From: a virus
Reading direction: 5' to 3' (one strand)
Virus record (IMG/VR): IMGVR_UViG_3300025759_000095
DNA: 61,958 bases
The translations under genes and the position numbers were made by a program. How positions within the stretch are numbered: position 1 is the first letter of the stretch; each line of letters opens with the position of its first letter. The notes under the pieces are model-generated. The model had not been told where the DNA came from, did not search any database, and saw nothing but the letters and a program-made list of their open reading frames with translations. Shown piece by piece: positions 3,494-37,000 of this stretch.

Positions 3494-3524
3494 TAAAGAT
3501 ATTAATAATTTTAAAATCTTAAAA

Positions 3525-3904: not shown

Positions 3905-3906
3905 TT

Positions 3907-4044: not shown

Positions 4045-4046
4045 TA

Positions 4047-4211: not shown

Positions 4212-4215
4212 AAAA

Positions 4216-4479: not shown

Positions 4480-4480
4480 G

Positions 4481-4624: not shown

Positions 4625-4625
4625 A

Positions 4626-6803: not shown

Positions 6804-6806
6804 GAT

Positions 6807-9104: not shown

Positions 9105-9107
9105 GAT

Positions 9108-13163: not shown

Positions 13164-13165
13164 AT

Positions 13166-16224: not shown

Positions 16225-16589
16225 TGGCATTTAATTTAAAAAATATTTATGAGGTTTTCGGACACAATAAAGAATTCTCTAACGGAGATAGAATTGTTGT
16301 GGAAAAAAAAATGTCTAAAAAAGTTTTAGGTCAAATAAATCCCAATGGTGTTATTGAGATAAATAAAGATGCAACACCTGCAAATAAACGCAGGGCAGTA
16401 AAGCATGAGCAAGTTCATCTAGATCAAATTAGATTAGGCTTGTTGCATTTTGATCATAACAATTATCATTATAGAGAAAGCATAACTTCACCAATTCAGA
16501 CAATACCAAGTAGTAAGATTAACACACACGACAGAAGTTTGCCGTGGGAAATACAAGCACACAATGGGCGAATTAAAAAAATGGGTTAA
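16224..16589 (+). CDS. Small HExxH-motif protein (121 aa), possible minimal metallopeptidase
   Basis: Contains RRAVKHEQVHLDQIRLGLLHFDH (HEQVH = HExxH, with further His downstream). The start overlaps the previous stop. Confidence 0.4.
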   Translation: MAFNLKNIYEVFGHNKEFSNGDRIVVEKKMSKKVLGQINPNGVIEINKDATPANKRRAVKHEQVHLDQIRLGLLHFDHNNYHYRESITSPIQTIPSSKINTHDRSLPWEIQAHNGRIKKMG

Positions 16590-17131: not shown

Positions 17132-18544
17132 ATGGCAATTATACCTAACGCACAACAATTTCACACTTTATCGTCTACGGTAGATACTACAGAGAGAGGA
17201 TCAGCATTAGCCAATGCAAGTAGAGAGGTTTACACAATGCAAGATATTAAGGAGTCAATATCGGCAATAGATGGGTCGGGGGTACAATATGCTGTGCCTG
17301 TATTTACAGATGCAAATACTTTAACTAACCTACCAATAGGAGCAGCTGGACAAGTATTAACTTCTGGTGGTGCAGGATCAAACCCTTCATTTATAGATGT
17401 AGGTGTAAAAACCGGCACACAAAATACAGGAATAGGATTTGAAGCTGCATCTACAGGAAGCGGAGGTCAATATAATACGGTCTTTGGACATCAAGCAGGA
17501 ATAGGAGTATTAGGCACTAACTACAATACAATTATTGGGGCTTCAGCATTTCCAAATATAACAGGTAATAGTGCTAATAACACTACTGTTGGTATGTTTG
17601 CTATGAATTCAGGTTCCGATAATATTGAAAAATGTGTGGCTGTTGGTAATTTTGCGTTAAGGTATATTAGTAGATCTGCTTTAGGTGGTGAAAATACTGG
17701 GATAGGGTATAAAGCAGGGGAGGATATAACAACAGGTAATGGTAACGTATTTGTGGGAAGTGAAGCAGGAAAAAATTGCGATACTGGAAACCTCAACACA
17801 GGAATAGGGAAGTTAGCTTTATATAGTTGTACTGGTACTAATAACAACGTAGGAATAGGAAGTTCATCTTTATATAACTTATTAGCTGCAAACGCAAATG
17901 TTGCTGTAGGAAATACATCTTTAAATACACTTCAAAGTGGAGAAAAAAATGTTGCTATGGGACATCAAGCTGGATACGGAATTACAGGTAACGAAAATAT
18001 AGCTGTTGGGTGGAGCTCAGCATTTAATTCTTTGTCAGGAGACAACAATGTGGTAATAGGAAACTTTGCTAATGCGAGCGGCGCGGCTGTTTCAAATGAA
18101 ATTACTTTAGGAAACTCAAGTATAACAACTCTTAGATGTCAAGTTACTTCTATAACTTCTTTATCTGATGAAAGAGATAAAACGGACATAGTTGATTTAG
18201 ACAAAGGACTAGAAACAATAATGGCGCTAAAACCTAGAAAATTTGTATGGAACAATAGACCTGAGCAAACAATTAAAACATGTATTCCAAAACAAGTTGA
18301 TGAGGAAGGCAATGTTATTGAAGAAGAAGTGATTGAATATGATGAAGTAGTAAGTTCAAAAAAAGGAAGTAAAGACGTTGGGTTTATTGCTCAAGAACTT
18401 CAAACAGTAGACGATGATTTTCTTCAATTAGTATATGATGTTAATCCGGAAAAATTAGAAGCAAGTTATGGTAGACTGATTCCAGTATTAGTAAAAGCGA
18501 TACAGGACTTATCAGCTAAAGTAACAGAATTAGAAAATAAATAA
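17132..18544 (+). CDS. Tail fibre paralogue B1 (470 aa) with S74-type chaperone domain
   Basis: N-terminal module MAIIPNAQQFHTLSSTVDTTERGSALANASREVYTMQDI is shared with B2 and B3. The centre consists of short Gly/Asn-rich repeats (N..(I/V)G..A). The conserved junction NEITLGNSSITTLRCQVTSITSLSDERDK precedes the chaperone domain (from nt 18164), which ends ...YGRLIPVLVKAIQDLSAKV. Confidence 0.85.
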   Translation: MAIIPNAQQFHTLSSTVDTTERGSALANASREVYTMQDIKESISAIDGSGVQYAVPVFTDANTLTNLPIGAAGQVLTSGGAGSNPSFIDVGVKTGTQNTGIGFEAASTGSGGQYNTVFGHQAGIGVLGTNYNTIIGASAFPNITGNSANNTTVGMFAMNSGSDNIEKCVAVGNFALRYISRSALGGENTGIGYKAGEDITTGNGNVFVGSEAGKNCDTGNLNTGIGKLALYSCTGTNNNVGIGSSSLYNLLAANANVAVGNTSLNTLQSGEKNVAMGHQAGYGITGNENIAVGWSSAFNSLSGDNNVVIGNFANASGAAVSNEITLGNSSITTLRCQVTSITSLSDERDKTDIVDLDKGLETIMALKPRKFVWNNRPEQTIKTCIPKQVDEEGNVIEEEVIEYDEVVSSKKGSKDVGFIAQELQTVDDDFLQLVYDVNPEKLEASYGRLIPVLVKAIQDLSAKVTELENK

Positions 18545-18552
18545 AATTAATC

Positions 18553-20073
18553 ATGGCAATAATACCTACAGGACAACAATTTCACACCCTTTCATCTACG
18601 GTAAGTACACTTGAAAGAGGTTCTGCTTATGCAAATGCAAGCAGAGAATCATTTACAATGCAAGATATAATAGACACTATATCAGCAACAGGAGGAGCAA
18701 TTGACGGATCTGGTACAGCTAGAACAATTCCTTTTTTTACAGATTCTAATACTATTGGAGATTCGCCCTTGATAGTAAGCACTTTTGTCCCCGGTGATGG
18801 CTTAGCGCAAATAAAATTTACGGATGGGTATAGATTTATTATAAACAGACCAGCAACTGTAACTAGTGGAGATCAAGAATACGCAATTACTCAAGATGAT
18901 GTTAATAAAGTTTCATTCGGTTGGGATGATGATGGAGGTGGTTTTGGATTTTTATATAACTGGGCTGGATTTGGTTGGAGAATTGGAGCAGCAGGTAATA
19001 ATCCTATGCTTGAAATTGTTACAACTGCAGGATCAGAAAGTGTAAATCTTCATAAACAAGTTGAATTTAAAGATTACGGAAGTGGTACTTATACAGGTAC
19101 AGCAGCTTATACTCTAGCAGTTGATGCTAGTGGTAATGTAATAGAAGAAGCTGCTGGGGGCGGAGGAGTTCCTTTTATTTTAGGGGGAACAAATTTTGCA
19201 AACTCTCTTAAAGTTGGAGATACTACTACCGGTACATTAAGCGCTGCAGAGTATAATGTAGGAGTTGGTGTTGCCTCTATGGATGCTATCACAAGCGCCG
19301 ACAGTTGTACGGCAGTAGGCTGGAGCAGTCTTGGCACTCTTACATCAGGAGGAGACAATACAGCCATGGGAAGTTTGGCAGGTAACGGTATAAGTTCAGG
19401 ACAGAACAATGTAAATATTGGAGCGAAATCATGTCAAAGTGGTAATACAAATTATAGCACTGGTGTGGGAGCCAGAACTTTGAGGTTTGGAGCAGCAGGA
19501 GCGGATAATAATGTAGCAGTAGGGTTTAGTGCAGGTATACAAACAGAAGGAGCTCAAAACACAATGTTAGGAGCTCAAGCTGGAGGTAATTTAACTACAG
19601 GGGCTAACAATACAATTGTAGGGTATGACGCAGAGCCATCATCCGCTACAGTATCCAATGAAATAACTTTAGGTAATTCAAGTGTTTCTGTCATAAGAGC
19701 GGCTGTAACAAGCATAACTTCATTATCTGATGAAAGAGATAAAAAAGACATAAAAGACATTACATACGGATTGGATTTTGTAAGTAAACTACAACCAAGG
19801 GAATTTGTATGGGACAATAGAGCAGAAAAAAGAGTTGTATTAGATGACGAGGGTAATGTAGAAAGTGAAACAGAACATTACAGTGATAATAAAAACAAAA
19901 AAGATTTTGGATTTATTGCACAAGAAGTTCAGGTTCACGACGATGATACCTTAAGATTAATATACGATGCAAACCCTGATAAATTAGAAATGAGCTATGG
20001 TAAACTAGTGCCAATACTCGTAAAAGCGATACAGGACTTATCAGCTGAATTAGATAAAAAACAAGATAAATAA
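18553..20073 (+). CDS. Tail fibre paralogue B2 (506 aa) with S74-type chaperone domain
   Basis: N-terminal module MAIIPTGQQFHTLSSTVSTLERGSAYANASRESFTMQDI. The central region is unique. NEITLGNSSVSVIRAAVTSITSLSDERDKKDI (chaperone domain from nt 19726) ends ...YGKLVPILVKAIQDLSAEL. Confidence 0.85.
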   Translation: MAIIPTGQQFHTLSSTVSTLERGSAYANASRESFTMQDIIDTISATGGAIDGSGTARTIPFFTDSNTIGDSPLIVSTFVPGDGLAQIKFTDGYRFIINRPATVTSGDQEYAITQDDVNKVSFGWDDDGGGFGFLYNWAGFGWRIGAAGNNPMLEIVTTAGSESVNLHKQVEFKDYGSGTYTGTAAYTLAVDASGNVIEEAAGGGGVPFILGGTNFANSLKVGDTTTGTLSAAEYNVGVGVASMDAITSADSCTAVGWSSLGTLTSGGDNTAMGSLAGNGISSGQNNVNIGAKSCQSGNTNYSTGVGARTLRFGAAGADNNVAVGFSAGIQTEGAQNTMLGAQAGGNLTTGANNTIVGYDAEPSSATVSNEITLGNSSVSVIRAAVTSITSLSDERDKKDIKDITYGLDFVSKLQPREFVWDNRAEKRVVLDDEGNVESETEHYSDNKNKKDFGFIAQEVQVHDDDTLRLIYDANPDKLEMSYGKLVPILVKAIQDLSAELDKKQDK

Positions 20074-20079
20074 TATGCT

Positions 20080-21495
20080 ATGGCAATAATCCCCACAGGG
20101 CAGCAATTTCACACTTTATCATCTACGGTAAGTACACTTGAAAGAGGTTCTGCTTATGCAAATGCAAGCAGAGAATCATACACAATGCAAGATATACTAG
20201 ATACTGTGTCAGCAGGCGGAGGAGGATTTCCATTTTTAATAGACACACAATCTTTATACGCTGGCTATGTTCCGCAGTTTTTATCAGGAAACCCACAAGG
20301 AAATACGTTTTTAGGAATTGACACTGGTCAATACCACACTACAGGTGTATCTAATACTGCTATAGGTTACAAAGCAATGGTTGGAGGATTTGATGGAGAG
20401 GGTGATGAATGTGTGTTTATTGGTTATGAAGCAGGGCTAGGTAACAATACTGAAGATAGAAACGTCGGTATTGGATACCGAGCAGCACTTTCCCCCTCTG
20501 GTAATGACAACGTAGCTGTAGGCCATAACGCTCAATCAGGAAATTCTAAAAATGTTTCAATAGGTTCTCAAGCAGGAGCTAATTTAAGTAGTGGTGCTGA
20601 AAATGTATTTATGGGAGCAAATGCTGGAGATGCTTTAACATCTGGAGATAGAAACATAGCAATTGGTACTGATGCATTAGGAGCAGCTACTGCATGTAGT
20701 GAAAACGTAGCAATAGGAGACGATGCTTTAGCTTCAAATAATGTATCTGGTAATTGGAATGTAGGTATAGGGAAAAGTGCTTTAAAAGTATTAACTAGCG
20801 GACAAAGAAACGTTGCTATGGGTGGATACTTTGCCGGAGACGCTTTAACAACGGGGTCGAATAATACAACAATAGGCTTTTGGAGTTTAAGCGCAGAGCA
20901 AACAGGAAGTGGAAACGTTGCGTTAGGTGAAAGCGCATTAAAAGGTCAAAACGCATCAACAACTACCTCTAATGCAAATATAGGTATAGGATATAGCGCT
21001 GGTAGTTCTTTATCAACCGGGACCAATAATATTGTTATAGGTACTAACGCTCAAGCTTCAAGCGCTACTGTAACAAATGAAATAACTTTAGGTAATTCTA
21101 GCATTACAGTAATAAGGGCAGCTGTAACAAGTATAACTTCTTTATCTGATGAAAGAGATAAAAAAGATATAGAAGATTTAGACACGGGATTAAATTTCGT
21201 GAATGCATTAAAACCTCGTAAATTTGTATGGGACAACAGAAGTGAAACAATAACAGAGCAGCAGATTGATGAAAATGGTGACATTACTGATATAGAAAAA
21301 GAATTAATAAATTCTAATAAAGGTAAAAAAGACTTTGGATTTATAGCTCAAGAAGTTAAATCATTAGATAATGACACTTTAAGATTAATATACGACGAAA
21401 ATCCTGACAAACTAGAAATGAGCTATGGTAAACTAGTGCCAATACTAGTAAAAGCAATACAAGAATTATCAGCTGAATTAGATTTGTTAAAGTAA
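20080..21495 (+). CDS. Tail fibre paralogue B3 (471 aa) with S74-type chaperone domain
   Basis: N-terminal module MAIIPTGQQFHTLSSTVSTLERGSAYANASRESYTMQDI. The central region is unique. NEITLGNSSITVIRAAVTSITSLSDERDKKDI (chaperone domain from nt 21145) ends ...YGKLVPILVKAIQELSAEL. Confidence 0.85.
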   Translation: MAIIPTGQQFHTLSSTVSTLERGSAYANASRESYTMQDILDTVSAGGGGFPFLIDTQSLYAGYVPQFLSGNPQGNTFLGIDTGQYHTTGVSNTAIGYKAMVGGFDGEGDECVFIGYEAGLGNNTEDRNVGIGYRAALSPSGNDNVAVGHNAQSGNSKNVSIGSQAGANLSSGAENVFMGANAGDALTSGDRNIAIGTDALGAATACSENVAIGDDALASNNVSGNWNVGIGKSALKVLTSGQRNVAMGGYFAGDALTTGSNNTTIGFWSLSAEQTGSGNVALGESALKGQNASTTTSNANIGIGYSAGSSLSTGTNNIVIGTNAQASSATVTNEITLGNSSITVIRAAVTSITSLSDERDKKDIEDLDTGLNFVNALKPRKFVWDNRSETITEQQIDENGDITDIEKELINSNKGKKDFGFIAQEVKSLDNDTLRLIYDENPDKLEMSYGKLVPILVKAIQELSAELDLLK

Positions 21496-22337: not shown

Positions 22338-22562
22338 ATGGATATTAGGAAGATTTCAATAGGCTCGGACTATAAGTCTAGTGCTATGCACTATCTTGTA
22401 GGTCAATCAATTTTAGGCGGCTCATATACTATTCATTTAATTCAATACGAAAGCAGCAGTGATTCAATAAAAATATGGATAGAAAGGCAAAATGAAATAT
22501 TACTATGGAAAGAGTTTAATTCTAACATGCCTATATCTATAGAATATAATATTAATTTTTAA
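22338..22562 (+). CDS. Hypothetical protein (74 aa)
   Basis: ORF tightly packed between neighbours. No motif recognised. Confidence 0.45.
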   Translation: MDIRKISIGSDYKSSAMHYLVGQSILGGSYTIHLIQYESSSDSIKIWIERQNEILLWKEFNSNMPISIEYNINF

Positions 22563-23125
22563 TGAAATCCCCACACTATTTTATCGTAAAACCTTTGAAG
22601 GGTAGAAGGTATGATAATATAAAAAAAATAGGTGGAATAGATTTTTATACTAGCGTATCACAGGAAGATCACACGGCTACAAACCGATTTGCAGAAGTTG
22701 TAAGCACCCCTTTAAATTACAAAGGTGATATAGACAAGGGGGATATTCTGTTAGTTCATCATAATGTATTTAAGATATATTATGACATGAAGGGTAGGGA
22801 AAAAAGTGGTAGAAGTTTTTTCAAAGAGGATTTGTTTTTTATAGACTATGATCAGTTTTATATGTATTGCAAAAATAATAAATGGAAAACTCATTCAAAG
22901 TATTGTTTCATAAAACCTGTTTCAGTTCGTGAATCCATAATCATGAAGCCAGTTGAAGAAGAGCCATTAGTGGGTATTGTTAAATACACTAATCCTATAT
23001 TGACAAAACTAGGCGTAAAAGAAAATGATGAAGTGGTGTTTGAGCCAGAATGCGAATATCCATTTTACATAAATGGAGAGAAACTCTACAGGATGTTTTG
23101 GAATAATATAACTATGGTATTATGA
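22562..23125 (+). CDS. Hypothetical protein (187 aa) with possible Cpn10/GroES-like beta-barrel segments
   Basis: YFIVKPLKGRRYDNIKKIGGIDFYTS...FAEVVSTP....IDKGDILLVHHNVF, and a second segment LVGIVKYTNP...LGVKENDEVVFEPECEYPFYINGEKLYRM, loosely follow the GroES pattern (KPL.DRV.V......T.GGI.L....G.V.AVG....VK.GD.V.F). The resemblance is weak and by eye only. Confidence 0.3.
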   Translation: MKSPHYFIVKPLKGRRYDNIKKIGGIDFYTSVSQEDHTATNRFAEVVSTPLNYKGDIDKGDILLVHHNVFKIYYDMKGREKSGRSFFKEDLFFIDYDQFYMYCKNNKWKTHSKYCFIKPVSVRESIIMKPVEEEPLVGIVKYTNPILTKLGVKENDEVVFEPECEYPFYINGEKLYRMFWNNITMVL

Positions 23126-23400
23126 AGTCATCAGAAGATTTAAAGTTAGATATAATTAGCGCAGGAAGAGAGGCTGTAGCTCAGCTTATTAAAGTTGCTA
23201 AAGAAGATATAATTAAGTACGATAAAGATGATGAGTTGGCGGCAGATAGATTAAAAAATGCAGCGGCTACAAAAAAGCTAGCTATATTCGATGCGTTTGA
23301 AATATTAACTAGAATTGAATTAGAAAAAGATTTGTTGAACGGAGTAGAAAAAGAAGAGGAAAAATCAAGACAGGGGTTTGCAGAAAGAAGGTCAAAATAA
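23122..23400 (+). CDS. Small helical protein (92 aa), small terminase subunit candidate by position
   Basis: Lies immediately upstream of, and overlaps by 23 nt, the large terminase gene. Charged helical composition. No motif evidence. Confidence 0.3.
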   Translation: MKSSEDLKLDIISAGREAVAQLIKVAKEDIIKYDKDDELAADRLKNAAATKKLAIFDAFEILTRIELEKDLLNGVEKEEEKSRQGFAERRSK

Positions 23401-25624
23401 ATTATACAAAGTAGTTGATAATCATATATCTAAGCAGTCTATGCTTAAGATGAATCAAAATAAATCTTGGCAATATGGATACAATCCCAAGCACGATTTA
23501 GTTGTGATTAGTAAAGACGGAACTATAGGTGAAATTTATAATATAAATGGTTTACTAATAGGATTGCCTAAAGCACCTAAAAACATATATAAAAATTCAA
23601 AAAAATCAGTCGATCAATATTGGCTTGCCTTTGAATACCCCAAATCATTATCACGAATCAATTCAATATTTCAATGGCATGAAATGAGTAGTGAATTTAA
23701 AAATGAATGGGTAAACTATATAGAGTCTGAGTTTGATAGAAGAGAGGAAGGGTTTTGGTTTTACAACAAGGGCGTGCCTACATATATAACAGGTACACAC
23801 TACATGTATTTACAGTGGACTAAAATAGATATAGGAAAGCCAGAGTTTAGAGAGGCTAATAGAATATTTTATATATTTTGGGAAGCTTGTAAAGCGGACA
23901 AAAGAAGCTTTGGAATGTGTTATCTTAAAATTAGACGTTCAGGTTTTTCGTTTATGGGGTCTTGTGAAGCTGTTAATACAGCTACAATTAGCAAGGATGC
24001 AAGAGTAGGTATACTATCTAAAACAGGATCCGATGCAAAAAAAATGTTTACTGACAAAGTAGTACCTATATCTAATAACTATCCTTTCTTTTTTAAACCT
24101 ATACAAGATGGTATGGATAGACCCAAGACAGAATTGGCTTACAGGGTGCCAGCTTCTAAGATAACAAAAAAGAATATGTTTGAAACAGAAGATGAAGAAC
24201 TGGAGGGATTAGATACAACCATCGACTGGAAAAATACTGCAGATAATAGTTATGATGGTGAGAAACTAAAACTACTAATTCATGATGAATCAGGTAAATG
24301 GCTTAAGCCAGACAATATTATAAATAACTGGAATGTTACTAAAACCTGTTTAAGATTAGGTAGTAAAGTTATAGGAAAATGTATGATGGGTTCTACTTCA
24401 AATGCATTGGATAAGGGAGGTGAAAATTTTAAAAAATTATTCTACAATTCTGATGTAACTAAAAGAAATCAAAACGGTCAAACCAAAAGTGGATTATATA
24501 ATTTGTTTATACCTATGGAATGGAACTTTGAAGGCTACATAGATAAGTATGGTATGCCGGTATTTAACACACCTGATACAGGGATAGAGGGTTCGGATGG
24601 TGAATTAATATATCAAGGCGCATTAAATTATTGGGAAAATGAAGTGGAGTCATTGAAGAAGGATCCAGACGTATTAAATGAATTTTACAGGCAGTTTCCA
24701 AGAACAGATTCTCATGCCTTTAGAGATGAGAGTAAACAATCTTTGTTTAACCTAACTAAAATTTATCAGCAAATTGATTACAATGATTCTTTAATTAAAG
24801 AGCATTATTTAACAAGAGGTAGATTTAGTTGGAAAGATGGAATAAAAGATACTAAGGTGGTTTGGTCACCTGACAACAGGGGTAGATTTTTAGTATCATG
24901 GATACCAGAAAAAAACTTACAAAACTGTAGGGTAAATCAAAATGGAAAGTATCTTCCAGGTAACGAACACTTAGGTAGTTTTGGTTGTGATTCCTATGAC
25001 ATATCCGGAACAGTTGGCGGTGGAGGATCAAACGGCGCTTTACATGGATTAACTAAATTTAACATGGATAACGCTCCTAGTAATGAATTCTTTTTAGAAT
25101 ACGTAGCTAGGCCTCAAACAGCAGAATTGTTTTTTGAAGATGTTTTAATGGCTTGTGTTTTTTATGGAATGCCTATATTAGTAGAAAATAATAAACCGAG
25201 ATTGCTGTACCATTTTAAAAATAGGGGGTATAGAAAATACTGCATGAATCGACCAGATAAAATATTTAATAAACTTTCTAAATCTGAAAAAGAAATAGGA
25301 GGAATACCTAATTCTTCTGAAGAAGTAAAACAAGCTCACGCAAGTGCGATTGAAAGTTATATAGAGAAACATGTAGGAATGGATATGGATGGTATGTTTA
25401 GGGAAAAATTAGATATGGGCTCTATGTATTTTAACCGAACTTTAGAGGATTGGGCAAGGTTCAATATTAATAACCGAACTAAGTTTGATGCGACTATTAG
25501 TTCTGGGTTGGCTATTATGGCTAATCAAAAGCACTTATATACACCACAAAAAAAAGAGTCAAAAATAAAGATTAACTTTGCAAGGTATAATAATAAAGGA
25601 TTATATAGCGAAATACGCAATTAA
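23378..25624 (+). CDS. terL: Terminase large subunit
   Basis: 748 aa. Degenerate Walker A-like KIRRSGFS, Walker B/catalytic LLIHDESGKW, coupling-type GSTSN, and a downstream acidic nuclease-like CDSYD. It abuts a portal-sized gene with a TAATG overlap. Confidence 0.7.
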   Translation: MQKEGQNKLYKVVDNHISKQSMLKMNQNKSWQYGYNPKHDLVVISKDGTIGEIYNINGLLIGLPKAPKNIYKNSKKSVDQYWLAFEYPKSLSRINSIFQWHEMSSEFKNEWVNYIESEFDRREEGFWFYNKGVPTYITGTHYMYLQWTKIDIGKPEFREANRIFYIFWEACKADKRSFGMCYLKIRRSGFSFMGSCEAVNTATISKDARVGILSKTGSDAKKMFTDKVVPISNNYPFFFKPIQDGMDRPKTELAYRVPASKITKKNMFETEDEELEGLDTTIDWKNTADNSYDGEKLKLLIHDESGKWLKPDNIINNWNVTKTCLRLGSKVIGKCMMGSTSNALDKGGENFKKLFYNSDVTKRNQNGQTKSGLYNLFIPMEWNFEGYIDKYGMPVFNTPDTGIEGSDGELIYQGALNYWENEVESLKKDPDVLNEFYRQFPRTDSHAFRDESKQSLFNLTKIYQQIDYNDSLIKEHYLTRGRFSWKDGIKDTKVVWSPDNRGRFLVSWIPEKNLQNCRVNQNGKYLPGNEHLGSFGCDSYDISGTVGGGGSNGALHGLTKFNMDNAPSNEFFLEYVARPQTAELFFEDVLMACVFYGMPILVENNKPRLLYHFKNRGYRKYCMNRPDKIFNKLSKSEKEIGGIPNSSEEVKQAHASAIESYIEKHVGMDMDGMFREKLDMGSMYFNRTLEDWARFNINNRTKFDATISSGLAIMANQKHLYTPQKKESKIKINFARYNNKGLYSEIRN

Positions 25625-28059
25625 TGGTAGATGTTAAAATTGATATAAACCCAGTTGGGTTTCCGGATTTATTTGTTTCTGATAGTGAAAAAGATACAGT
25701 AGAGTATGGATTGCAAATTGGACAGGCAATTCAGTACGAATGGTTTCGTAAAGATAGTAGCACTTGTAGGTTTTATTCTCAATGGAGAGATTACCATAGA
25801 CTACGACTTTATGCTAGAGGCGAACAGTCAGTTCAGAAATATAAAAATGAATTAGCAATTGATGGAGATTTAAGTTACTTAAACTTAGATTGGACTCCAG
25901 TTCCTATTATTCCCAAGTTTGTAGACATTGTTGTAAATGGCATGTCAGACAGATTATTTAAAGTTCAAGCGTATGCTCAAGATGCTTTGTCTGCAGAAAA
26001 AAGATCTTCCTTCCAAGACATGATCGAATCAGATATGGTTGCCAAACCTATACTTTCCCAAATACAAAAAGGCTTTGGAGTAAATCCTTTTGCTACTGAT
26101 CCCGATGAGCTTCCCAATAATGATGAAGAGCTGGCGTTGTATATGCAATTAAATTACAAGCCGGGGATAGAGATAGCTGAAGAAGAAGCTATAAATACTT
26201 TGTTTGAAGAAAATCATTATTCACATACTAGAAGACGTGTTGATTATGATATTACAGTATTAGGCGTTGGAATCACTAAACAATATTTTTTACCAGGTGA
26301 GGGTGTAAAAATAGATTATGTAGATCCTGCAAATGTAGTGTATAGTTATACTGAAGATCCTTATTTCAAAGATTGTTTTTATTGGGGTGAAATAAAAACT
26401 GTTCCAATGACTGAGCTTCCTAAAATAGACCCTACATTAACAAATGAAGATTTAGAGGAGATAGCAAAATACAGTCAAGCTTGGTATGATTATTACAATG
26501 TAGCTCAGTTTTATGAAAACAGTGTATTTTATAGAGACACAGCAACGCTGTTGTACTTTAACTATAAAACTACAAATTCAATAGTATACAAAAAGAAAAA
26601 ATTAGACGGGGGCGGCGCTAGGGTTATTGAGAAAAACGATGAGTTTAACCCTCCAGAAGAGATGATGGAAGAAGGTAACTTTGAAAAAGTTGAAAAGAAA
26701 ATTGATGTCTGGTATGAGGGCGTTATGGTAATGGGTACAAATATTGTCCTTCAGTGGAAAAAAATGGAAAATATGGTTAGGCCTCAATCCGCTTCTCAAC
26801 ACGCTATGCCTAATTACGTTGCTTGTGCTCCAAGAATGTATAAAGGAATTATAGAATCTTTAGTGAGACGTATGATCACATTTGCTGATTTAATACAAAT
26901 GACTCACTTAAAACTACAACAAGTAATTGCGAGGACAGTGCCAGATGGTGTATTCATTGACGCAGATGGGTTGAATGAAGTTGATTTAGGAACAGGAAAT
27001 GCTTATAATCCACAAGACGCATTAAGATTGTATTTTCAAACAGGTTCTGTAATAGGAAGAAGCTATACTCAAGATGGCGAGTTTAATAACGCCAGGGTGC
27101 CAATACAGCAATTAACAGCTAGTAGTGGTCAAGGAAAAATAAATAGTTTAGTGGGTACTTACAACCATTATATGGATATGTTAAGGGGCGTTACTGGATT
27201 AAATGAAGCTAGGGATGGAACTAAGCCAGATCCTTATGCGTTAGTAGGTGTTCAAAAATTAGCAGCATTAAATTCAAATACAGCAACTAGACATATTTTA
27301 CAAGGTAGTTTATACATTACTCAAACATTAGCCGAAGCTCTATCTATTAGAGTTGCCGATATTCTACAATATGCAGAATTCAAGGAAGAGTTTAAAATGC
27401 AGATAGGTAAATATAATGTTGGAATCCTGGAGGAGATAAATGATTTATATATATATGACTTCGGTATATTTATAGAAGTTGCTCCTGATGAAGAAGAGAA
27501 AGCTCAGTTAGAGCAAAACATTCAGATGGCATTATCTAAAAACGATATTAACTTAGAAGACGCAATAGATATAAGAGAACTTAAAAACATAAAGTTAGCT
27601 AACCAATTACTAAAAGTAAAAAGACAAAAGAAACAAGAAAAAGATCAGCAGTTTGCCATGACTCAAAAACAAATGGATGCGCAGACAAAAATGCAGGTTC
27701 AACAAATGCAGGCCGAACAAGAAATGAGAAAGATACAGATGGAAGGTCAAATGCAAATGCAAGCTAAGCAGGCTGAAGTAGCTTTTGATATAGAGAAGTT
27801 GAAAAACGAAGCAATGTTAAAACGTGAGTTGATGCAAGTAGAGTTTGATTTCAATATGCAGTTAAAGGGTAGAGAAGAGCAGGCTATAGATAAAAGAGAA
27901 CAAGAAAGGGAGAAAGCCAAAAACAAACGAATTAGTCAAGCTAACACTGAGCAATCACAATTAATTCAGCAAAGAAAAAACAATCTACCTCCCATTAGCT
28001 TTGAATCAAATGAAGATACGCTAGATGGATTTGACTTAGCAGAATTCGAGCCTAGATAA
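25624..28059 (+). CDS. Portal protein (by position and size)
   Basis: 811 aa, directly after terL and before the scaffold/capsid genes. The C-terminal ~150 aa are a Q/E/K/M-rich coiled coil (QKKQEKDQQFAMTQKQMDAQTKMQVQQMQAEQEMRKIQMEGQMQMQ). No motif-level proof. Confidence 0.6.
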   Translation: MVDVKIDINPVGFPDLFVSDSEKDTVEYGLQIGQAIQYEWFRKDSSTCRFYSQWRDYHRLRLYARGEQSVQKYKNELAIDGDLSYLNLDWTPVPIIPKFVDIVVNGMSDRLFKVQAYAQDALSAEKRSSFQDMIESDMVAKPILSQIQKGFGVNPFATDPDELPNNDEELALYMQLNYKPGIEIAEEEAINTLFEENHYSHTRRRVDYDITVLGVGITKQYFLPGEGVKIDYVDPANVVYSYTEDPYFKDCFYWGEIKTVPMTELPKIDPTLTNEDLEEIAKYSQAWYDYYNVAQFYENSVFYRDTATLLYFNYKTTNSIVYKKKKLDGGGARVIEKNDEFNPPEEMMEEGNFEKVEKKIDVWYEGVMVMGTNIVLQWKKMENMVRPQSASQHAMPNYVACAPRMYKGIIESLVRRMITFADLIQMTHLKLQQVIARTVPDGVFIDADGLNEVDLGTGNAYNPQDALRLYFQTGSVIGRSYTQDGEFNNARVPIQQLTASSGQGKINSLVGTYNHYMDMLRGVTGLNEARDGTKPDPYALVGVQKLAALNSNTATRHILQGSLYITQTLAEALSIRVADILQYAEFKEEFKMQIGKYNVGILEEINDLYIYDFGIFIEVAPDEEEKAQLEQNIQMALSKNDINLEDAIDIRELKNIKLANQLLKVKRQKKQEKDQQFAMTQKQMDAQTKMQVQQMQAEQEMRKIQMEGQMQMQAKQAEVAFDIEKLKNEAMLKRELMQVEFDFNMQLKGREEQAIDKREQEREKAKNKRISQANTEQSQLIQQRKNNLPPISFESNEDTLDGFDLAEFEPR

Positions 28060-28604
28060 TGTTTGATAATTTTAATATTGAAAGATACAAGCAAATTAGC
28101 TTCCCTAAAAACAACTCCTTAAGAACATTGGGTGAAATAAAAAAATTAAAACTAATGCCATTAAATAAAGTTTTGCCGCCTAAATATGATGATATAGGTA
28201 ATGTGTTTCAAAATATTTTTTCACACCGAGCAGAATCTTTTCCATACAGGGTAGTACAAAAATTAATAGAAGAATCTGAGCCTGTAATTAAAAAAATAAA
28301 AGACTATCATAATAGACCAAGGCCTAATGTAAATGCAAAAAAATTTAAGATTGATTTAGACTATTTAAAAATGAAAAGCGCACAAACGCCATCATTTCCG
28401 TCAGGTCACTCGGCGCAATCAAAATTAGTAGCATTAGCATTAACAGATATTTACCCTCATTTGAAAAGGGAATTTGATAAAGCGGCTGAAAATATATCTA
28501 ATAGTAGAATAGTTGCAAGAGTGCATTATGAATCGGATAAAACAGTGGGGGAAAAATTAGGAGCAGATCTTTATAACCATATAAAGGATCTTAAATATAT
28601 TTAG
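28059..28604 (+). CDS. PAP2-superfamily (type 2 phosphatidic acid phosphatase / class A acid phosphatase-like) enzyme
   Basis: All three PAP2 signature motifs occur in order: KIKDYHNRP / KDYHNRPRP (Kx6RP, residues 79-89), PSGHS (114-118) and SRIVARVHYESD (SRx5Hx3D, 149-160). The protein is 181 aa with no obvious TM segments. Confidence 0.8.
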   Translation: MFDNFNIERYKQISFPKNNSLRTLGEIKKLKLMPLNKVLPPKYDDIGNVFQNIFSHRAESFPYRVVQKLIEESEPVIKKIKDYHNRPRPNVNAKKFKIDLDYLKMKSAQTPSFPSGHSAQSKLVALALTDIYPHLKREFDKAAENISNSRIVARVHYESDKTVGEKLGADLYNHIKDLKYI

Positions 28605-28614: not shown

Positions 28615-28622
28615 TAACTTTG
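28615..28622 (+). promoter_or_regulatory. Candidate -7 promoter box (TAACTTTG, extended TAACTTTGTAAA)
   Basis: Exact TAnnTTTG in the 33-nt gap, 15 nt upstream of the scaffold ATG (28638). Confidence 0.4.
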
Positions 28623-28637: not shown

Positions 28638-29819
28638 ATGGAAATAAAAGTAAGAGATTTAGGTGAAATAGAATCTAAGTCAACACAAGAAATCGAAAAA
28701 CAACTATTGGAAAAACACGAAGCTCAACAAGCATCGATGGATAACCCAAAGCCACAAGACGAGGTTCAACGAGTAAACCTACAAGAGACTCCAAAGGAAA
28801 CTCCAAAGGAAACTCCAAAGGAAGAGAAGGTGGTTGAAGAAAAAATTGAAGAATCTGTTGTAGAGGCACCTAGTGAATCTACACCAGAGATGTCTGAAAA
28901 TGACGTTCTTTCATATATTGCAAACAAGTATGGCGAAGAAGTAAGTTCGCTAGACGACTTCATTGTAAAGCGAAGTTCATCTGAAGAATTACCGGAGGAT
29001 GTAAAAGCTTACTTTGATTATAAAAAAGAAACAGGAAGAGGAATAGATGATTTTGTTAGATTACAACAAGATTATGATTCAATGAATCCTGATTCTTTAA
29101 TTGCTAATTATTATTCTGCAACAGAAGAAGGATTAGATTCAGAGGATATTAAATATCTAATGGATGATAAATTTGGATTTGATGATGAATTAGATGATGA
29201 AAAAGAAAAAAAGAAAAAACAATTAGCAAAAAAAAGAGAGCTATCTAAAGCTAAGAAATACTTTAAAGAGCAAAAAGAAAAATACAAACTACCTCTTGAG
29301 TCAAGAGAAGTTGTTTCTGAAAGCAATAAAAAGGAAGTCGAAGCTTATAGAAAGTACATAGAGGAAAATGCTGCGTATGAAAAAGATGCAGCGCAGAAGC
29401 TACAGTGGTTCAAAGAAGAAACTAATAAAGTCTTTAATAAAGATTTCAAAGGTTTTGAGTTTGTTATTAACGAAAAGAAAATTTCTTATTTACCTGGATC
29501 TGTAGAGGATGTAAAAAATAGTCAGTCAAGTATCGAAAATTTTATTGGAAGATATGTTGATGATAAAGGATTGGTTAAAAACACCTCGCAGTATCATAGG
29601 GCTTTATCTATGGCAATGAATCCGGACAAGTATGCCAAGTTCTTTTACGAGCAAGGCAAGGCGGATGCAGTGGACAGTATATCTAAAAAAACAAAAAATA
29701 TAAATATGGATGTAAGGTCTGCTCCACAAGTCACATCAAAATCAGGGTTCAAAGTAAGGTCGTTAAACCAAGACTCAGGTCGAGGTTTGAAGATCAGGAG
29801 TATAAAAAAAAGTAATTAA
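28638..29819 (+). CDS. Scaffolding protein (by position and composition)
   Basis: 393 aa, highly charged and helical (E/K/D-rich), with an ETPKETPKETPKE repeat. It lies between the portal and capsid genes. Confidence 0.55.
   Translation: MEIKVRDLGEIESKSTQEIEKQLLEKHEAQQASMDNPKPQDEVQRVNLQETPKETPKETPKEEKVVEEKIEESVVEAPSESTPEMSENDVLSYIANKYGEEVSSLDDFIVKRSSSEELPEDVKAYFDYKKETGRGIDDFVRLQQDYDSMNPDSLIANYYSATEEGLDSEDIKYLMDDKFGFDDELDDEKEKKKKQLAKKRELSKAKKYFKEQKEKYKLPLESREVVSESNKKEVEAYRKYIEENAAYEKDAAQKLQWFKEETNKVFNKDFKGFEFVINEKKISYLPGSVEDVKNSQSSIENFIGRYVDDKGLVKNTSQYHRALSMAMNPDKYAKFFYEQGKADAVDSISKKTKNINMDVRSAPQVTSKSGFKVRSLNQDSGRGLKIRSIKKSN
28788..28823 (+). repeat. Perfect 3 x 12-nt tandem repeat (actccaaaggaa) encoding TPKE x3
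   Basis: Read directly: actccaaaggaa at 28788, 28800 and 28812. Confidence 0.95.
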
Positions 29820-29842: not shown

Positions 29843-31273
29843 ATGGCTGGTTCAGTTAGCGCTACTCCTACATTTGCACTACAACCTAGTGCAGAAAGAG
29901 TAGCCGTACAATCAAACTACATAACTAACTTTAACTTCTTAAATCAGTATCTACCGGATACTTATGAAAAGGAGTTTGAGAGATACGGGAATAGAACAGT
30001 GGCATCATTCTTAAGAATGGTAGGCGCTGAAATGCCTTCTAACTCTGACCTTATTAAATGGGCGGAGCAAGGAAGATTACACACTAAGTACACAAATGTA
30101 ACTTCAGCTGCAGCAGCAGCTCAAGATACAGCTACACTAACAATCAATGACACTCTTGTACCAGGTACAGGTGGGATTGCAATTAGAGTAGGTCAAACAT
30201 TTATGTTGTCTGACAGTTCAATTGGTTCTACTAACAGTAACAAAGGTATCGTTACTGCAGTAAACTATGGTGCAGGTACAATTGATGTTGCGTACTATGA
30301 AGCAGGTGGTCAAACAATGGCTGCAGCTGTACAGTGTTCATTATTTATCTATGGATCTGAATTCCAAAAAGGTTCAGTTGCTATGGCTAATTCATTAGAA
30401 GCTGATGACGTGATCTTCAGCAATAGTCCAATTATCATTAAAGATCTTTACGAAGTATCTGGTTCTGATATGGCGCAAATCGGATGGATTGAAGTAACTA
30501 CTGAAAATGGAGCTACAGGATACCTATGGTATTTAAAATCAGAGCATGAAACAAGACTAAGATTCGAGGATTACCTAGAGACAGCAATGGTGGAAGCAGT
30601 TCCAGCAGAAGCAGGCTCTGGTGTGGCAGCTATCGCAGCTGGTGTAGCATCAGGTACAGGTAATAAAGGATCTGAAGGATTATTTTATGTATTAGGTCAA
30701 AGAGGAAATGTATGGGGCGGTGGAATTCCAGCGGCTTTAGCAGACTTTGACGCTGTTATTCAGAGATTAGATAAGCAAGGTGCTATCGAAGAAAATGTAT
30801 TATTCGTGAACAGAGAGTTTTCTTTTGACATTGATGATATGTTAGCTGCACAGAATTCATATGGTGCAGGTGGTAGTTCTTACGGATTATTTGATAATGA
30901 CGAAGAAATGGCATTGAATTTAGGATTCTCTGGATTCAGAAGAGGTTATGACTTCTACAAAACAGATTGGAAATACCTTAACGATCCTACTATGAGAGGA
31001 GATATTGTTGGAGGAAAAATCAACGGTGTACTTGTACCTGCTGGTTCTACTTCAGTATACGATCAAATCTTAGGTAAGAACGCTAAGAGACCATTCTTAC
31101 ACGTAAGATATAGAGCTTCTGAAACTGAAGATAGAAGATACAAAACATGGATTACTGGTTCTGCTGGTGGCGCTGCTACTTCAGGAACTGACGTAATGCA
31201 GGTTAACTTCTTATCAGAAAGAGCGCTTTGTACTTTAGGTGCAAACAACTTCTTCTTATTCCAAAATGCATAA
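29843..31273 (+). CDS. Major capsid protein (by position)
   Basis: 476 aa, following the scaffold-like gene and terminated by the strongest hairpin terminator in the window. Composition is typical of capsid proteins (A/G/T/V-rich, few Cys). No fold evidence is available. Confidence 0.65.
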   Translation: MAGSVSATPTFALQPSAERVAVQSNYITNFNFLNQYLPDTYEKEFERYGNRTVASFLRMVGAEMPSNSDLIKWAEQGRLHTKYTNVTSAAAAAQDTATLTINDTLVPGTGGIAIRVGQTFMLSDSSIGSTNSNKGIVTAVNYGAGTIDVAYYEAGGQTMAAAVQCSLFIYGSEFQKGSVAMANSLEADDVIFSNSPIIIKDLYEVSGSDMAQIGWIEVTTENGATGYLWYLKSEHETRLRFEDYLETAMVEAVPAEAGSGVAAIAAGVASGTGNKGSEGLFYVLGQRGNVWGGGIPAALADFDAVIQRLDKQGAIEENVLFVNREFSFDIDDMLAAQNSYGAGGSSYGLFDNDEEMALNLGFSGFRRGYDFYKTDWKYLNDPTMRGDIVGGKINGVLVPAGSTSVYDQILGKNAKRPFLHVRYRASETEDRRYKTWITGSAGGAATSGTDVMQVNFLSERALCTLGANNFFLFQNA

Positions 31274-31292: not shown

Positions 31293-31322
31293 AGGGGGTG
31301 ATTTTCACCCCCTAGATATTTT
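31293..31322 (+). terminator. Intrinsic terminator after the capsid gene
   Basis: The perfect stem agggggtga (31293..31301) / tcaccccct (31305..31313) has a ttt loop, and a T-rich stretch (atatttt) follows closely. It lies 20 nt after the stop codon. Confidence 0.8.
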
Positions 31323-33123: not shown

Positions 33124-34044
33124 ATGGCATACTTAACAGGTTATCAATATTATGAAAATTCAGGAACCGCTCCCACTAATCAAAACTGGGGAAGCTATCA
33201 ATATGTTTCATTGGAAGATGTTGTAAATAACTTTATGCTTATATACAATGACAATCTTCAGCTTATTAATAATGTCACGAGGTATCAGGTTTTGTTTTTT
33301 GCAAAACGAGCGATTCAAGAATTGAATTACGATGCATTTAAAGAAGTAAAGGTTTTAGAGCTAGACGTTAGCGATCAATTACGTTTTGTTTTACCGCCAG
33401 ATTTTGTAAACTACGTAAGAATATCAATGTTTAAAGATGGAATGCTTTACCCATTGAGTGAGAACATACAAATTAATTCAGCCACAAGTTATCTGCAGGA
33501 TAACAATTGCGATATTTTATTTGATGTAAATGGAAATATCTTGCAAGCTGAGTTTTCTACAGTAGATAGAGAAAGAATTGCTGGTACAAAAAAATCAATC
33601 TACTTAGGTCATGGCCCTTACAATGGAAGAGAAGGGTTCTGTGTAGATGGATGTTGGTATTTTAACTACAGAATTGGAGCTAGATTTGGATTGAATACTG
33701 AAACAGCAAACATAAATCCAACATATAGAATAGATAAAAAAGCAGGTGTAATTAACTTTAGTTCAGGTATGGCTAATCAATTATGTGTACTAGAGTATGT
33801 ATCTGATGGAATGGAAAACGGAGACGATAGTGCCGTGAGCGTTAACAAATTATTTGAAGATTATATATATGCATATATTAAATACGCTATATTAAATTCA
33901 AAGCTAGGAGTACAAGAATATATAGTTAATAGAGTGAGAAAAGATAAATCAGCTCTTCTAAGAAATGCAAAAATTCGCCTAAGCGACATACATCCAGGTA
34001 GGCTTTTAATGAATCTTAGAGGTCAATCAAAGTGGATTAAATGA
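33124..34044 (+). CDS. Hypothetical structural protein (306 aa), tail tubular A-like by position
   Basis: Precedes and overlaps (ATGA) the 1652-aa gene, an order analogous to T7 gp11-gp12. No motif-level support. Confidence 0.45.
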   Translation: MAYLTGYQYYENSGTAPTNQNWGSYQYVSLEDVVNNFMLIYNDNLQLINNVTRYQVLFFAKRAIQELNYDAFKEVKVLELDVSDQLRFVLPPDFVNYVRISMFKDGMLYPLSENIQINSATSYLQDNNCDILFDVNGNILQAEFSTVDRERIAGTKKSIYLGHGPYNGREGFCVDGCWYFNYRIGARFGLNTETANINPTYRIDKKAGVINFSSGMANQLCVLEYVSDGMENGDDSAVSVNKLFEDYIYAYIKYAILNSKLGVQEYIVNRVRKDKSALLRNAKIRLSDIHPGRLLMNLRGQSKWIK

Positions 34045-37000
34045 CAGTAATACAAACTAATTTTATTAAAGGCCGAATGAATAAGTCGGTCGATGAAAGA
34101 TTACTTCCGCCGGGAGAATATGTAGATGCTCAAAATGTAAGACTTGGATCTACTGAAGACACAGAGATAGGTTCTGTAGAAAATTCAAAGGGTAATTCTC
34201 TTTTAGCGGAGCTTGTTTATGACGGGGTGGTTTTAGATCCAGCCACTACAAAATGTATTGGGACTCTGGAAGATGGTGTGAATAACACTATTTATTGGTT
34301 TGTTCATGATTCTAACAACGCTCAATCTGCTACAGGTATAGTTGATATGATTGTTTCTTACAATGTAATAAACAACAACTTAATATACCACGTAATATCT
34401 ACAAGTGTTTTAAATTTTAATCCTTCGTATTTAATTAACGCAGTAAATAAAATTGACAACCTATTGTTTTTTACAGACAATATAAATCCTCCTAGATGCA
34501 TTAATGTAGAAAGAGCTTATTTACCACCAACTGCATTAGATGTAGATCAAATTACAGCAGCAGAACTTAATGTTATTAAAGCGCCACCAATGAGCGCTCC
34601 TACTGTAAATCTTTTACAGTCAGGACAGGAAGAAAATTTTCTTAAAAAAAACATAATTAGCTTTGCTTACAGGTATCAATACTTAGATAACGAATACTCC
34701 GCAATATCTCAATTTAGCGACATTGCTTTTGTGCCTGACTTTTTTAGTTTAAATACCAGTGATTTGTCTAATTCAGGAATGGAGAATGTGTACAATACCG
34801 CAGAGATTTCATTCAACACTGGAAGTAAATTAGTTAAAGAAATAGATTTGCTATTTAAATATGCAAACCAACCAGGTGTATATGTTATTGAAAAATTTAA
34901 CAAAGGTATTTTAGGATGGTCTAATAATATAACTAGAACACAAAGCTTTAGGCACAACCAAATATATACTGCATTAGGCGACAACCAACTGACAAGACTA
35001 TTTGATAATGTCCCTAGAACAGCTAAGTCACAAACGATTATGGCTAACAGATTAATGTACGGTAATTATGTTGATGGATACAATGTAAATAGTCAGTTGA
35101 ATTACACCGTTGCATTAAACAGGGAATTAATTAATCTAAATGAATTTACAGGTGTATTATCAAATGGCGCTTACACTATAGACATCAGTAAAACAATAAC
35201 TAATTCTGTTGCCACATTTGATTACACAGATATTGATAGTCCAGATTCATTAAAAAAAGATTCACAAATCGGTTTTCAATTTAATTTTAGATCAGCTGAT
35301 TTTGATGCACCGGGCGGAGGGGCTCCCCCAGGTACACCAAATCAAGTTTTAACTGAAATCGCTTTTACAATTACCCTTAATCAAGACTACAATAGTATTT
35401 ATGATTTCTTTAATGGAACTTTTGTGGCTCAACAAGTGAGCTCAGGGGTTGCAGGCCCATTTATGACTAACAATCCCTGTAATGAAACTACCTTTACAGA
35501 TATTTTAAATTGCGCTATTGCAGATCAATCTACATTCTTACACTCATATTCTGGAATAGATAATAGAGATGAGGGTATAAAAATTACAACCAGTCCGGGT
35601 AGCTCATCAGTTAGTTTACAATTAGTTGCAGCTGAATTTGACGATTCTACCTCTGGTGCCGCAACCACCGACATGTATGGGTACTATCAATTTACAGCTG
35701 CACAATCAGATTACTCTTCAAGAGGAAATAGAAAAAGTCTACATAGTAATAGAAATTATGATGTGGGAATAGTATACATGGATGAATATTTAAGAAGTAC
35801 TACAGCTTTAACTTCTCCAAATAATACAATTTATGTGCAGCCCTCAAGTTCGATAACAGCAAACAGTTTAAAGGTTACAATACCTACTACAATGAATCCG
35901 CCAAGTTGGGCAAGCAAATATAAATTTGTGGTAAAAAGAGCGGAAGATACTTATGAAACAATATATTCAGTAATTGCATTTGATGACGACTCTACTAATT
36001 CAGTGTGGATTAGGCTTGAGGGTGATAATCAAGTTAAAACAAAAAAAGGAGATACACTAGTTGTAAAGGCAGATGTTAGTGGCCCTCTAAACACAATAGT
36101 AACTACCAAAGTTTTGGCGATAGAATCTAAAGCAAACAACTTTTTGACACCCGAAGCATCACAAGGTATTGGTAGCAACGCACCATTTATTTCAGAACCT
36201 GCGGGATTATACATGAACCTTAAACCTCAAGGCTTTACAATAACCGATGATGTAAATGGATTTTTTGATAGCGGCCAGATAGGTGGTAGGAGTGGTAAAA
36301 GAGGAGGGCCAGCAGCAAAAGCAGGGGTTCCTTGCTTCAAAGAAACTATAGATGCCTCTGGTAATACACAAGTTGAAAACATAGATATACCTGAAGGATC
36401 ATTAGTAAACTTTGCATTAAGATTTAATAGAAATGCAAGTGACGGTGGATTTTTAGTGGGTAGTTCAGAACAAAAAACATATGACTACAACAGAACAGTT
36501 GTTGCCTCTCAAGACTACAATTCAATGTTTGAATTTGTTAACGGTGAAGGTATTGATTTCACAGAAGGTGTAGCGTCAGGAACTGGAACACAGCCGACTA
36601 ATGTATACACTAACACTGTTGGTAATTTAGCCAGTGAATTTGACAATGTTGTTTTTCAACCTAGCAGTCCTGCAGAAAATAAATATAGATTTTATACAGT
36701 TGGTGCAGCTACACCTGCTACAGGGCCGCAAACACCTGGGGCGGGTGGAACAAAACTTACCCTTGGGCTTGTAAGTGGAAACGGAGGAGATAGTGGTCAA
36801 AGAACCAGAATAGAAGGTCAGATAACAATTAATATAGGTACAGCTTCACTGATATTAGAAACACAGCCCTTGAACGCTGACTTAGATATATACTATGAAA
36901 ACGACGAAGTGTTTGAAATTACAGGAGGGTTTCATCAGTCTGGAAGTAAAACAGGAGATCAAAACCAAACCGGTGCACAAGCAGGTATTGTAAACCTAGG

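Follow-up and report, generated by a model that had tools for sequence, protein, structure and literature searches.

We analyzed a 61,958-nt stretch of viral DNA, the IMG/VR virus record IMGVR_UViG_3300025759_000095 (hereafter the window, at its full length), with respect to a gene for a 181-amino-acid (aa) protein of the PAP2 family that lies between the portal gene and a scaffold-like gene. The product of this gene truly belongs to the PAP2 superfamily, and its catalytic residues are all in place. Other phages encode homologous domains joined to the portal protein or to a prohead protease-scaffold polyprotein, which lends independent comparative support to the suggestion of an earlier note on this DNA that the protein is possibly packaged. 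Our preferred reading, to which we assign a probability of about 0.55, is that the PAP2 protein would be a cargo phosphatase carried inside the capsid and delivered at infection.

Catalytic motifs, predicted fold and enzyme class

The open reading frames (ORFs) were listed by a program, and the PAP2 protein was analyzed with Pfam, PHROGs, a sequence search of the PDB and regular expressions. Pfam PAP2 (PF01569) matched residues 79-165 at 38.4 bits (gathering cut-off 27.2; E = 1.3e-9), and no PHROG family matched the protein. The earlier note had reported the three PAP2 motifs in their proper order, and the regular expressions, the Pfam match and an alignment of 36 close homologues all confirm them (Table 1). 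Its range for the first motif, Kx6RP at residues 79-89, merges two overlapping registers of the expression, 79-87 and 81-89; the second is the true one, because K81, R88 and P89 are invariant in the 36 homologues and P87 is variable, and because of the HMMER alignment to the Pseudomonas enzyme 7f18. PSGH is also invariant in the close homologues. R150, H156 and D160 are invariant both in these and in the 51 fused homologues described below, where the P, S and H of motif 2 are invariant and the G nearly so. By analogy with the solved class A enzymes, H156 would be the nucleophile, attacking the phosphorus to give phospho-histidine; D160 would polarise it as the charge relay, H117 would protonate the leaving group as general acid, and the phosphate would be held by K81, R88, S115, G116 and R150. 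From these residues we infer phosphatase activity via a phospho-histidine intermediate. The length of 181 aa and the solubility claimed for the protein also hold: the first is given by the ORF list, the Kyte-Doolittle mean over 19 residues peaks at only 0.48, so that there is no transmembrane segment, and a hydrophobic N-terminus is absent. The isoelectric point is 9.7.

An AlphaFold2 model built from the family alignment reached a mean predicted local distance difference test score of 95.8 and a predicted template-modelling (TM) score of 0.92, and is all-helical, with nine helices in a single bundle. Foldseek against the PDB, a check that the earlier note had recommended, established the PAP2 fold (probability 1.00 to PAP2 structures) and placed class A acid phosphatases on top, with TM scores of 0.65-0.75 normalised to the query, 17-23% identity and E = 2e-6; with one exception, the top 28 matches were class A enzymes. 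The best matches in the PDB sequence search were likewise class A acid phosphatases (PhoN, 7f18 and 1iw8, E ~4e-6), with LpxE and a vanadium haloperoxidase scoring far below them.

With the class A non-specific acid phosphatases (NSAPs), among them Salmonella PhoN, PhoC, the Escherichia blattae NSAP and that of P. aeruginosa (PDB 2a96, 1d2t, 7f17), the window protein has the motifs, the catalytic residues and, as predicted, the soluble all-helical bundle in common. The class A signature is G-S-Y-P-S-G-H-T, to which the surroundings of motif 2 are a partial match, reading T-P-S-F-P-S-G-H-S in the window and T-P-S-Y-P-S-G-H-(A/S/T) in homologues. The family alignment also holds an N-terminal P...S...E/D element, which we take to resemble the corresponding class A element. 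However, class A acid phosphatases are periplasmic, exported enzymes. We searched 1.84 billion representative proteins with a profile of the PAP2 family, which gave 203 proteins at E <= 1e-30, and analyzed the best 150; neither the window protein nor 148 of these 150 has a signal-peptide-like N-terminus. As this secretion criterion fails, we do not file the window protein as an ordinary class A enzyme. It is, besides, some 30 residues shorter than the mature enzymes and phage-encoded, and in its relatives the domain is often part of a portal, protease-scaffold or giant multidomain protein. On these comparisons it is best described as a phage-specific, signal-less offshoot of the class A NSAPs.

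The earlier note had proposed an action on lipid phosphates such as undecaprenyl pyrophosphate (C55-PP) and lipid A. An enzyme that dephosphorylates lipid A, undecaprenyl pyrophosphate or phospholipid head groups for entry or exit would be consistent with the presence of LpxE and PgpB among the weaker Foldseek matches (PAP2 membrane enzymes; 6ebu, E = 8e-3; 5jki, E = 4e-5), with the periplasmic action established for class A relatives, and with some large homologues that adjoin M23/SLT cell-wall enzymes or carry transmembrane-like segments. The integral-membrane PAP2 lipid-phosphate phosphatases (PgpB, LpxE/LpxF, BcrC, B. subtilis PgpB 5jki) do belong to the same superfamily and have the active-site motifs in common with the window protein, but enzymes of this type are polytopic, and the window protein has no hydrophobic segment and matches them more poorly. 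To our knowledge, every characterised lipid-phosphate PAP2 enzyme has membrane segments. The absence of any such segment, together with closest sequence and fold matches that are soluble class A enzymes, ruled out a membrane lipid phosphatase as the identity of the protein. Its best matches act on soluble phosphoesters, and fusion partners such as ArdC-N (see below) indicate the cytoplasm or DNA. A direct action on C55-PP or lipid A is hence speculative, as the nearest relatives are soluble and delivery to the envelope would be required, and we regard a role on envelope lipids as improbable. Scavenging of phosphate, also suggested in the earlier note, found no specific support.

The active-site architecture of PAP2 enzymes is found as well in vanadium haloperoxidases, which have two helical bundles, and a vanadate-dependent haloperoxidase could be conceived to work in sea water, which contains vanadate and is rich in halide. 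Family members do give faint precomputed matches to Pfam VCPO_2nd, and the Zobellia vanadium iodoperoxidase 4cit is a distant fold match (E = 1.7e-3; TM score normalised to 4cit 0.32). Nevertheless, the acid phosphatases match far better, the matched haloperoxidase chains are 2-3 times longer (>400 residues) than this 181-aa single helical bundle, and the aspartate of the phosphatase-type HxxxD motif, which the window protein keeps, is invariant. All of this makes a haloperoxidase the least credible of the functions that we considered.

Fusions to capsid-interior proteins and the case for packaged cargo

The strongest indication of where such a domain may act comes from its fusions. Among the best 150 family members, 51 are multidomain proteins, 300-1526 aa long, each with a complete PAP2 domain whose catalytic residues are kept. 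Two of these, P0226 (843 aa) and P0231 (829 aa), consist of a Phage_portal domain (PF04860) with PAP2 at the C-terminus, joined by an acidic linker, and their loci are normal head modules with terminase, S78-type protease and capsid genes. One such locus (L035) runs from a GpA-type terminase through portal-PAP2 and an S78-type prohead protease protein to the major head protein. In a sister phage (L207), whose portal is 61% identical over the matched region, the portal is without PAP2 and the following gene encodes a 902-aa protein: a PAP2 domain with intact motifs stands directly before a region sharing 47% identity with the protease of L035, and after this come an acidic linker and a tail resembling a scaffold. 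The portal protein of a further relative (L208) is a plain one of 501 aa. Within this one lineage the PAP2 domain has thus moved between the C-terminus of the portal and a protease-scaffold polyprotein. From what is known of tailed-phage head assembly, portal and protease-scaffold carriers are both expected inside the procapsid. Residues 728-842 of P0226, at the end of the portal-PAP2 fusion, form a module of ~110 aa (...YPxIWxxGGNIKGNDQY...REAWxARH...) that also lies within the prohead protease-scaffold proteins of many other phages (for instance L212 and L221, residues 180-285), and it appears to be typical of capsid-interior proteins.

Other carriers are more varied. P0245 combines PAP2 with ArdC-N, the single-stranded DNA-binding domain of transferred anti-restriction proteins; P0148 (1526 aa) is encoded directly behind a protein with M23, peptidoglycan-binding and SLT domains that resembles internal virion lysins; P0119 (820 aa) is encoded two genes downstream of a 2220-aa protein; and in P0108 an N-terminal HExxH module is fused to PAP2. 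Several large carriers have transmembrane-like segments and some homologues have Lys-rich tails. The partner regions of most large carriers gave no known domain, and motifs in P0119 and P0184 suspected to be ParB-like (DGNHR) and HNH-like were not confirmed by Pfam or PDB sequence searches. Fused and stand-alone domains interleave by similarity, the fused P0121 domain being 90% identical to the stand-alone P0127. Beyond the PAP2 domain, nothing detectable is common to the fusion-carrying phages and the window phage, and the domain is therefore regarded as a mobile module.

Two ORFs of the window itself show similarity to proteins of this set. The 121-aa ORF at 16224-16589, which has a HEQVH motif and no Pfam match, is 31% identical over 62 aa (E = 6e-9, pairwise) to the HExxH module of P0108; judging from this similarity, its product may be a small zincin-like peptidase linked functionally to the phosphatase. 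The last 61 aa of the 306-aa virion structural protein encoded at 33124-34044 are 43% identical to the C-terminal tail of P0164, a metagenomic protein of 172 aa that begins with the C-terminal half of a PAP2 domain and could be either a true chimera or the product of faulty assembly or gene calling.

Fusion to portal/MuF proteins, or occurrence in large "polyvalent" virion-linked proteins, predicts effectors that are packaged and injected, examples being RNases, 2H phosphoesterases, RelA/SpoT and an inorganic pyrophosphatase domain (Iyer et al. 2017, PMC5512222). That study lists no PAP2 effector, although the domain is likewise portal-adjacent, fused to the portal in homologues and found within large multidomain proteins, one of them with ArdC-N. 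Whereas fusion to a capsid-interior protein is seen in homologues, the window PAP2 is a stand-alone protein of 181 aa in which no MuF domain was found; it is its gene that lies next to the portal in a head module, an arrangement that is not universal among the clades. Taken together, these likenesses suggest that PAP2 is a variant of the portal-linked packaged-effector theme, arisen by recurrent attachment to capsid-interior proteins.

In the crassvirus PhiCrAss001, cargo proteins fill a zone adjoining the portal, and a cargo domain is attached to the portal within the capsid (PMC10172136). The location proposed here for PAP2, in the capsid interior near the portal, at low copy and with release at infection, is that of T4 Alt/IPI, the P22 ejection proteins and the portal-bound gp45 of PhiCrAss001 (PMC10172136); the PAP2 protein has no sequence similarity to these cargo proteins, and its packaging is deduced from comparison. 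None of the three is described as a phosphatase in PMC5512222 or PMC10172136, literature searches combining PAP2 with phage, portal, virion or polyvalent proteins returned nothing pertinent (one match was a giant-virus contig), and a PAP2 catalytic domain in a packaged-effector role was thus not found described in the searchable literature. The window phage has features of its own that bear on the question. Homologues of the crAss-type muzzle proteins (crAss_MUZ, crAss_MUZ_C) are encoded at 34041-38999 and 39009-39755, and they link its group, the cultured kin of which infect Flavobacteriia, architecturally to the Crassvirales. The product of the last gene of the plus-strand structural block (42327-49004) is 2225 aa long; its residues 1883-2090 match Pfam LPD38 ("large polyvalent protein associated domain 38"), and its C-terminal half matches the giant-protein PHROGs 14770, 616 and 10691. 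This protein may itself be injected cargo of polyvalent or RNA-polymerase type. The muzzle proteins, the LPD38 giant and the portal-bound cargo of crassviruses make cargo plausible in this lineage.

According to this reading, the PAP2 protein would be synthesized at a low, portal-like level as the last cistron of a terminase-portal unit, by re-initiation at the TAATG overlap with the portal gene, and would be built into the interior of the procapsid near the portal vertex. At infection it would leave the capsid with the DNA, or ahead of it, and in the host envelope or cytoplasm it would remove a terminal phosphate from a low-abundance host molecule by the chemistry outlined above. A low-abundance target is the more plausible because a few copies per virion cannot shift millimolar pools; candidates would be a (pyro)phosphorylated signal or alarmone of nucleotide type, a phosphorylated macromolecular end, or an envelope phosphate on the periplasmic side. 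It is tempting to speculate further, although we hold this to be doubtful, that the domain represents a new class of capsid-delivered effector, portal-tethered or portal-adjacent, which erases a phosphorylated host molecule before phage gene expression. Its possible targets would then be an alarmone or immune nucleotide with a terminal phosphate or pyrophosphate or, from the periplasm, lipid A or undecaprenyl pyrophosphate.

Distribution, selection and arguments against packaging

The window appears to be a podophage genome of ~60 kb, kin of the Flavobacterium Elemoviruses, of the Maribacter phage Panino and of a spring-water metagenomic phage. Metagenomes are rich in relatives of the PAP2 protein, both close and moderately distant and 177-184 aa long, on contigs of ~60 kb and in Tara Oceans data; at least 593 IMG/VR stretches encode relatives, and one 90%-identity cluster alone covers >100 contigs, Tara Oceans samples among them. 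A scan of 185,579 representative bacterial and archaeal species gave no close relative. For the clade of the window we compiled 87 IMG/VR loci, 86 of them with upstream sequence, and PAP2 directly follows the portal gene in 85 of the 86 (portal identity 63-100%, PAP2 identity 47-98%), with the stop/start overlap, and its 3-nt spacing of last portal codon and PAP2 ATG, kept in 52 of the 85. In seven loci (L031, L032, L050, L052, L055, L062 and L075) portal and PAP2 are separated by a gap of 290-341 nt, which would hold an extra ORF of ~100 aa; in L031 (7687-7998) and L032 the gap has a called 103-aa ORF, that of L031 being without a Pfam match. The portal-PAP2 junction is a recurrent insertion point. 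Pairwise ratios of nonsynonymous to synonymous substitution (dN/dS) are 0.05-0.10 for PAP2, 0.05 for the capsid gene and 0.01 for the portal gene, and the PAP2 gene is under purifying selection. A one-off passenger gene was rejected, as the position is conserved and dN/dS is low.

Several observations weigh against the cargo reading. The gene is absent from the cultured relatives and from the metagenomic spring-water phage: in the Elemoviruses, Panino and the spring-water phage, a scaffold-like gene follows the portal after 41-70 nt, and tblastn against the GenBank phage collection returned no true PAP2 homologue and no cultured carrier (three weak matches were enterobacterial-type PhoN in short or contaminated records and are not relevant). 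In a sister clade with portals ~50% identical, all 58 of 58 loci have portal, scaffold and capsid genes without PAP2. Sister-clade genomes encode it elsewhere, after a giant 2504-aa protein on one contig (sampled as L113 and L154) or just upstream of a GroEL homologue (L102, L114, L116), and a branch of PAP2 proteins of 215-221 aa adjoins RusA in another phage type; adjacency to the portal is consequently not obligatory. Besides, the window protein has no recognisable capsid-targeting signal, the few enzyme copies that a virion can hold limit the effect on abundant metabolites, and the portal and protease fusions belong to a single other lineage and need not apply to that of the window. The earlier note had taken absence of the gene from relatives as a sign of a mere passenger and had recommended a survey of the insertion point. 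On the first count the outcome is divided, as the cultured relatives lack the gene but the uncultured marine clade keeps both the site and the selection; on the second, the position after the portal is nearly constant within the clade and not found in sister clades, where the gene is elsewhere or missing.

The alternative positions are all co-directional with the neighbouring ORFs, several of which are virion, chaperonin or giant-protein genes. In loci of other phage lineages (L109-L113, L115, L117, L126) PAP2 clusters with homologues of the window genes at 12538-14395 and 14622-15083. The former comprise ORFs of 100, 108 and 409 aa, and the cluster usually comes after a giant protein of 2240-2850 aa. 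In the phage type with RusA, an 889-aa protein with a RelA_SpoT (alarmone synthetase) domain and an 1113-aa protein are encoded ~6 kb upstream of a 221-aa PAP2 relative (L023, 1-2204; L024). Neighbours of PAP2 in the 215-aa and giant-protein clades gave almost no PHROG or Pfam matches.

The same distribution would suit an unpackaged late enzyme that stays inside the infected cell, where it dephosphorylates nucleotides or other phosphoesters and so reshapes pools or frees phosphate as an auxiliary metabolic gene, its position being incidental. A small, stand-alone, soluble protein without a capsid-targeting signal, placed by related phages next to GroEL, after a giant protein or by RusA, and dispensed with by cultured relatives that build the same head, speaks for this explanation, and the GC content of the gene (29.9%, against 34.1% for the genome) is as expected of an accessory gene. 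On the other hand, it leaves unexplained both the fusions to the portal C-terminus and to the prohead protease-scaffold protein and the large multidomain carriers beside virion-type cell-wall-degrading proteins, and a broad cytoplasmic phosphatase would oppose the supply of nucleotides during phage DNA synthesis. We consider it unlikely, though it is the weightiest of the alternatives.

Tight linkage to the portal, the portal and protease-scaffold fusions, the basic isoelectric point and the Lys-rich tails could also be read as a role of the phosphatase in head assembly, on packaged DNA ends or on an assembly intermediate. Phages with 71% identical portals and the same head genes lack PAP2 completely, though, and in sister clades the gene lies well away from those of the head. 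Since near kin do without it and sister clades place it remotely, the protein is dispensable for assembly, and an essential head-assembly factor was rejected; it has to be seen as an accessory function rather than an assembly factor. A part in assembly or at genome ends is accordingly very improbable.

If packaging holds, marine phages would have repeatedly recruited an everyday periplasmic type of enzyme as pre-made cargo, with the virion replacing the lost signal peptide as the route of delivery, and a phosphatase would be added to the injected effectors known from phages. Packaging would also imply a phosphate-bearing host molecule that is important in the first seconds of infection in marine hosts of Flavobacteriia type, and would offer a compact, well-modelled protein of 21 kDa for studying how podovirus capsids take up folded enzymes and eject them. 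Given the abundance of the family, this biology would be ecologically widespread.

Expression unit and other features of the window

The raw sequence and the PHROG assignments of the neighbours (Table 1) agree with the earlier note that the start codon overlaps the portal stop and that the gene sits between portal and scaffold; the overlap suggests translational coupling from portal to PAP2.

Table 1. Coordinates of the PAP2 gene, its motifs and the surrounding features in the window.
Feature	Coordinates	Strand	Description
Terminase large subunit	23378..25624	+	phrog_6681, E = 3e-183; upstream, in co-directional block
Portal, 811 aa	25624..28059	+	phrog_6547, E = 5e-137; 45-71% identical to Elemovirus, Panino and MW202828 portals
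TAATG	28057..28061	+	portal stop TAA (28057-28059) shares one base with PAP2 ATG (28059-28061); raw sequence
PAP2 gene	28059..28604	+	ATG start; 181 aa, ~21 kDa; class A acid-phosphatase-like; signal peptide absent
Motif 1, K81-x6-R88-P89	28299..28325	+	regular expression; phosphate-binding Lys and Arg; aligns with KxxxxxxRP of 7f18
Motif 2, P114-S-G-H117	28398..28409	+	regular expression; His the putative general acid
Motif 3, S149-R150-x5-H156-x3-D160	28503..28538	+	regular expression; putative nucleophilic His and charge-relay Asp
TAnnTTTG box, TAACTTTG	28615..28622	+	Bacteroidetes -7-like; 15 nt before scaffold ATG
Scaffold-like/structural protein, 393 aa, acidic	28638..29819	+	phrog_16786; homologues directly after portal in PAP2-less relatives
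Major-capsid-like virion structural protein	29843..31273	+	phrog_13704, E = 7e-100
GC-rich hairpin with T-rich tail	31293..31313	+	9-bp stem, 6 GC pairs; after capsid gene, terminator-like

Between PAP2 and the scaffold-like gene lies a TAnnTTTG box, a sequence that we take to match the Bacteroidetes -7 promoter consensus. Of 40 distinct relatives, 39 have a box of this type 23-34 nt upstream of the scaffold start, and it is present as well in the three relatives that lack PAP2. Genome-wide the motif is barely enriched by itself (116 matches vs 95 expected), and its weight rests on intergenic position and conservation: on the plus strand of the structural block, 7 of 42 matches fall in the 3.8% of the sequence that is intergenic (binomial p = 0.0009). 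These seven boxes, at 12026, 14498, 17096, 21507, 28615, 32141 and 39762, are candidate Bacteroidetes-type promoters that would split the structural block into units. A scan for sigma-70 promoters was uninformative, with 42 sites vs 39.7 expected. Together with the hairpin after the capsid gene, the box suggests that scaffold and capsid form a highly expressed unit of their own, with putative promoter and terminator, and that PAP2 was inserted upstream of that promoter as the last, coupled cistron of the terminase-portal unit, a position that would favour low, portal-like expression. The co-expression with head genes predicted in the earlier note would thus extend to the portal but not to scaffold and capsid, from which the gene is separated by the promoter-like box.

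Elsewhere in the window, a GroEL-type chaperonin is encoded at 825-2420 (phrog_5725, E = 7e-133) and a GroES-like protein at 22562-23125 (phrog_13932). Neither tRNA genes nor Rfam families at the gathering threshold were found in the whole window, and ORFs of at least 90 aa are sparse in the regions 2420-4626 and 57753-61958. Two tail-fibre/tail-spike-like blocks (4626-12023 and 17132-21495) include proteins of 725, 765 and 971 aa and three paralogues of ~470-506 aa, all three with phrog_23837 and phrog_4636; the two blocks suggest a multi-receptor adsorption apparatus.

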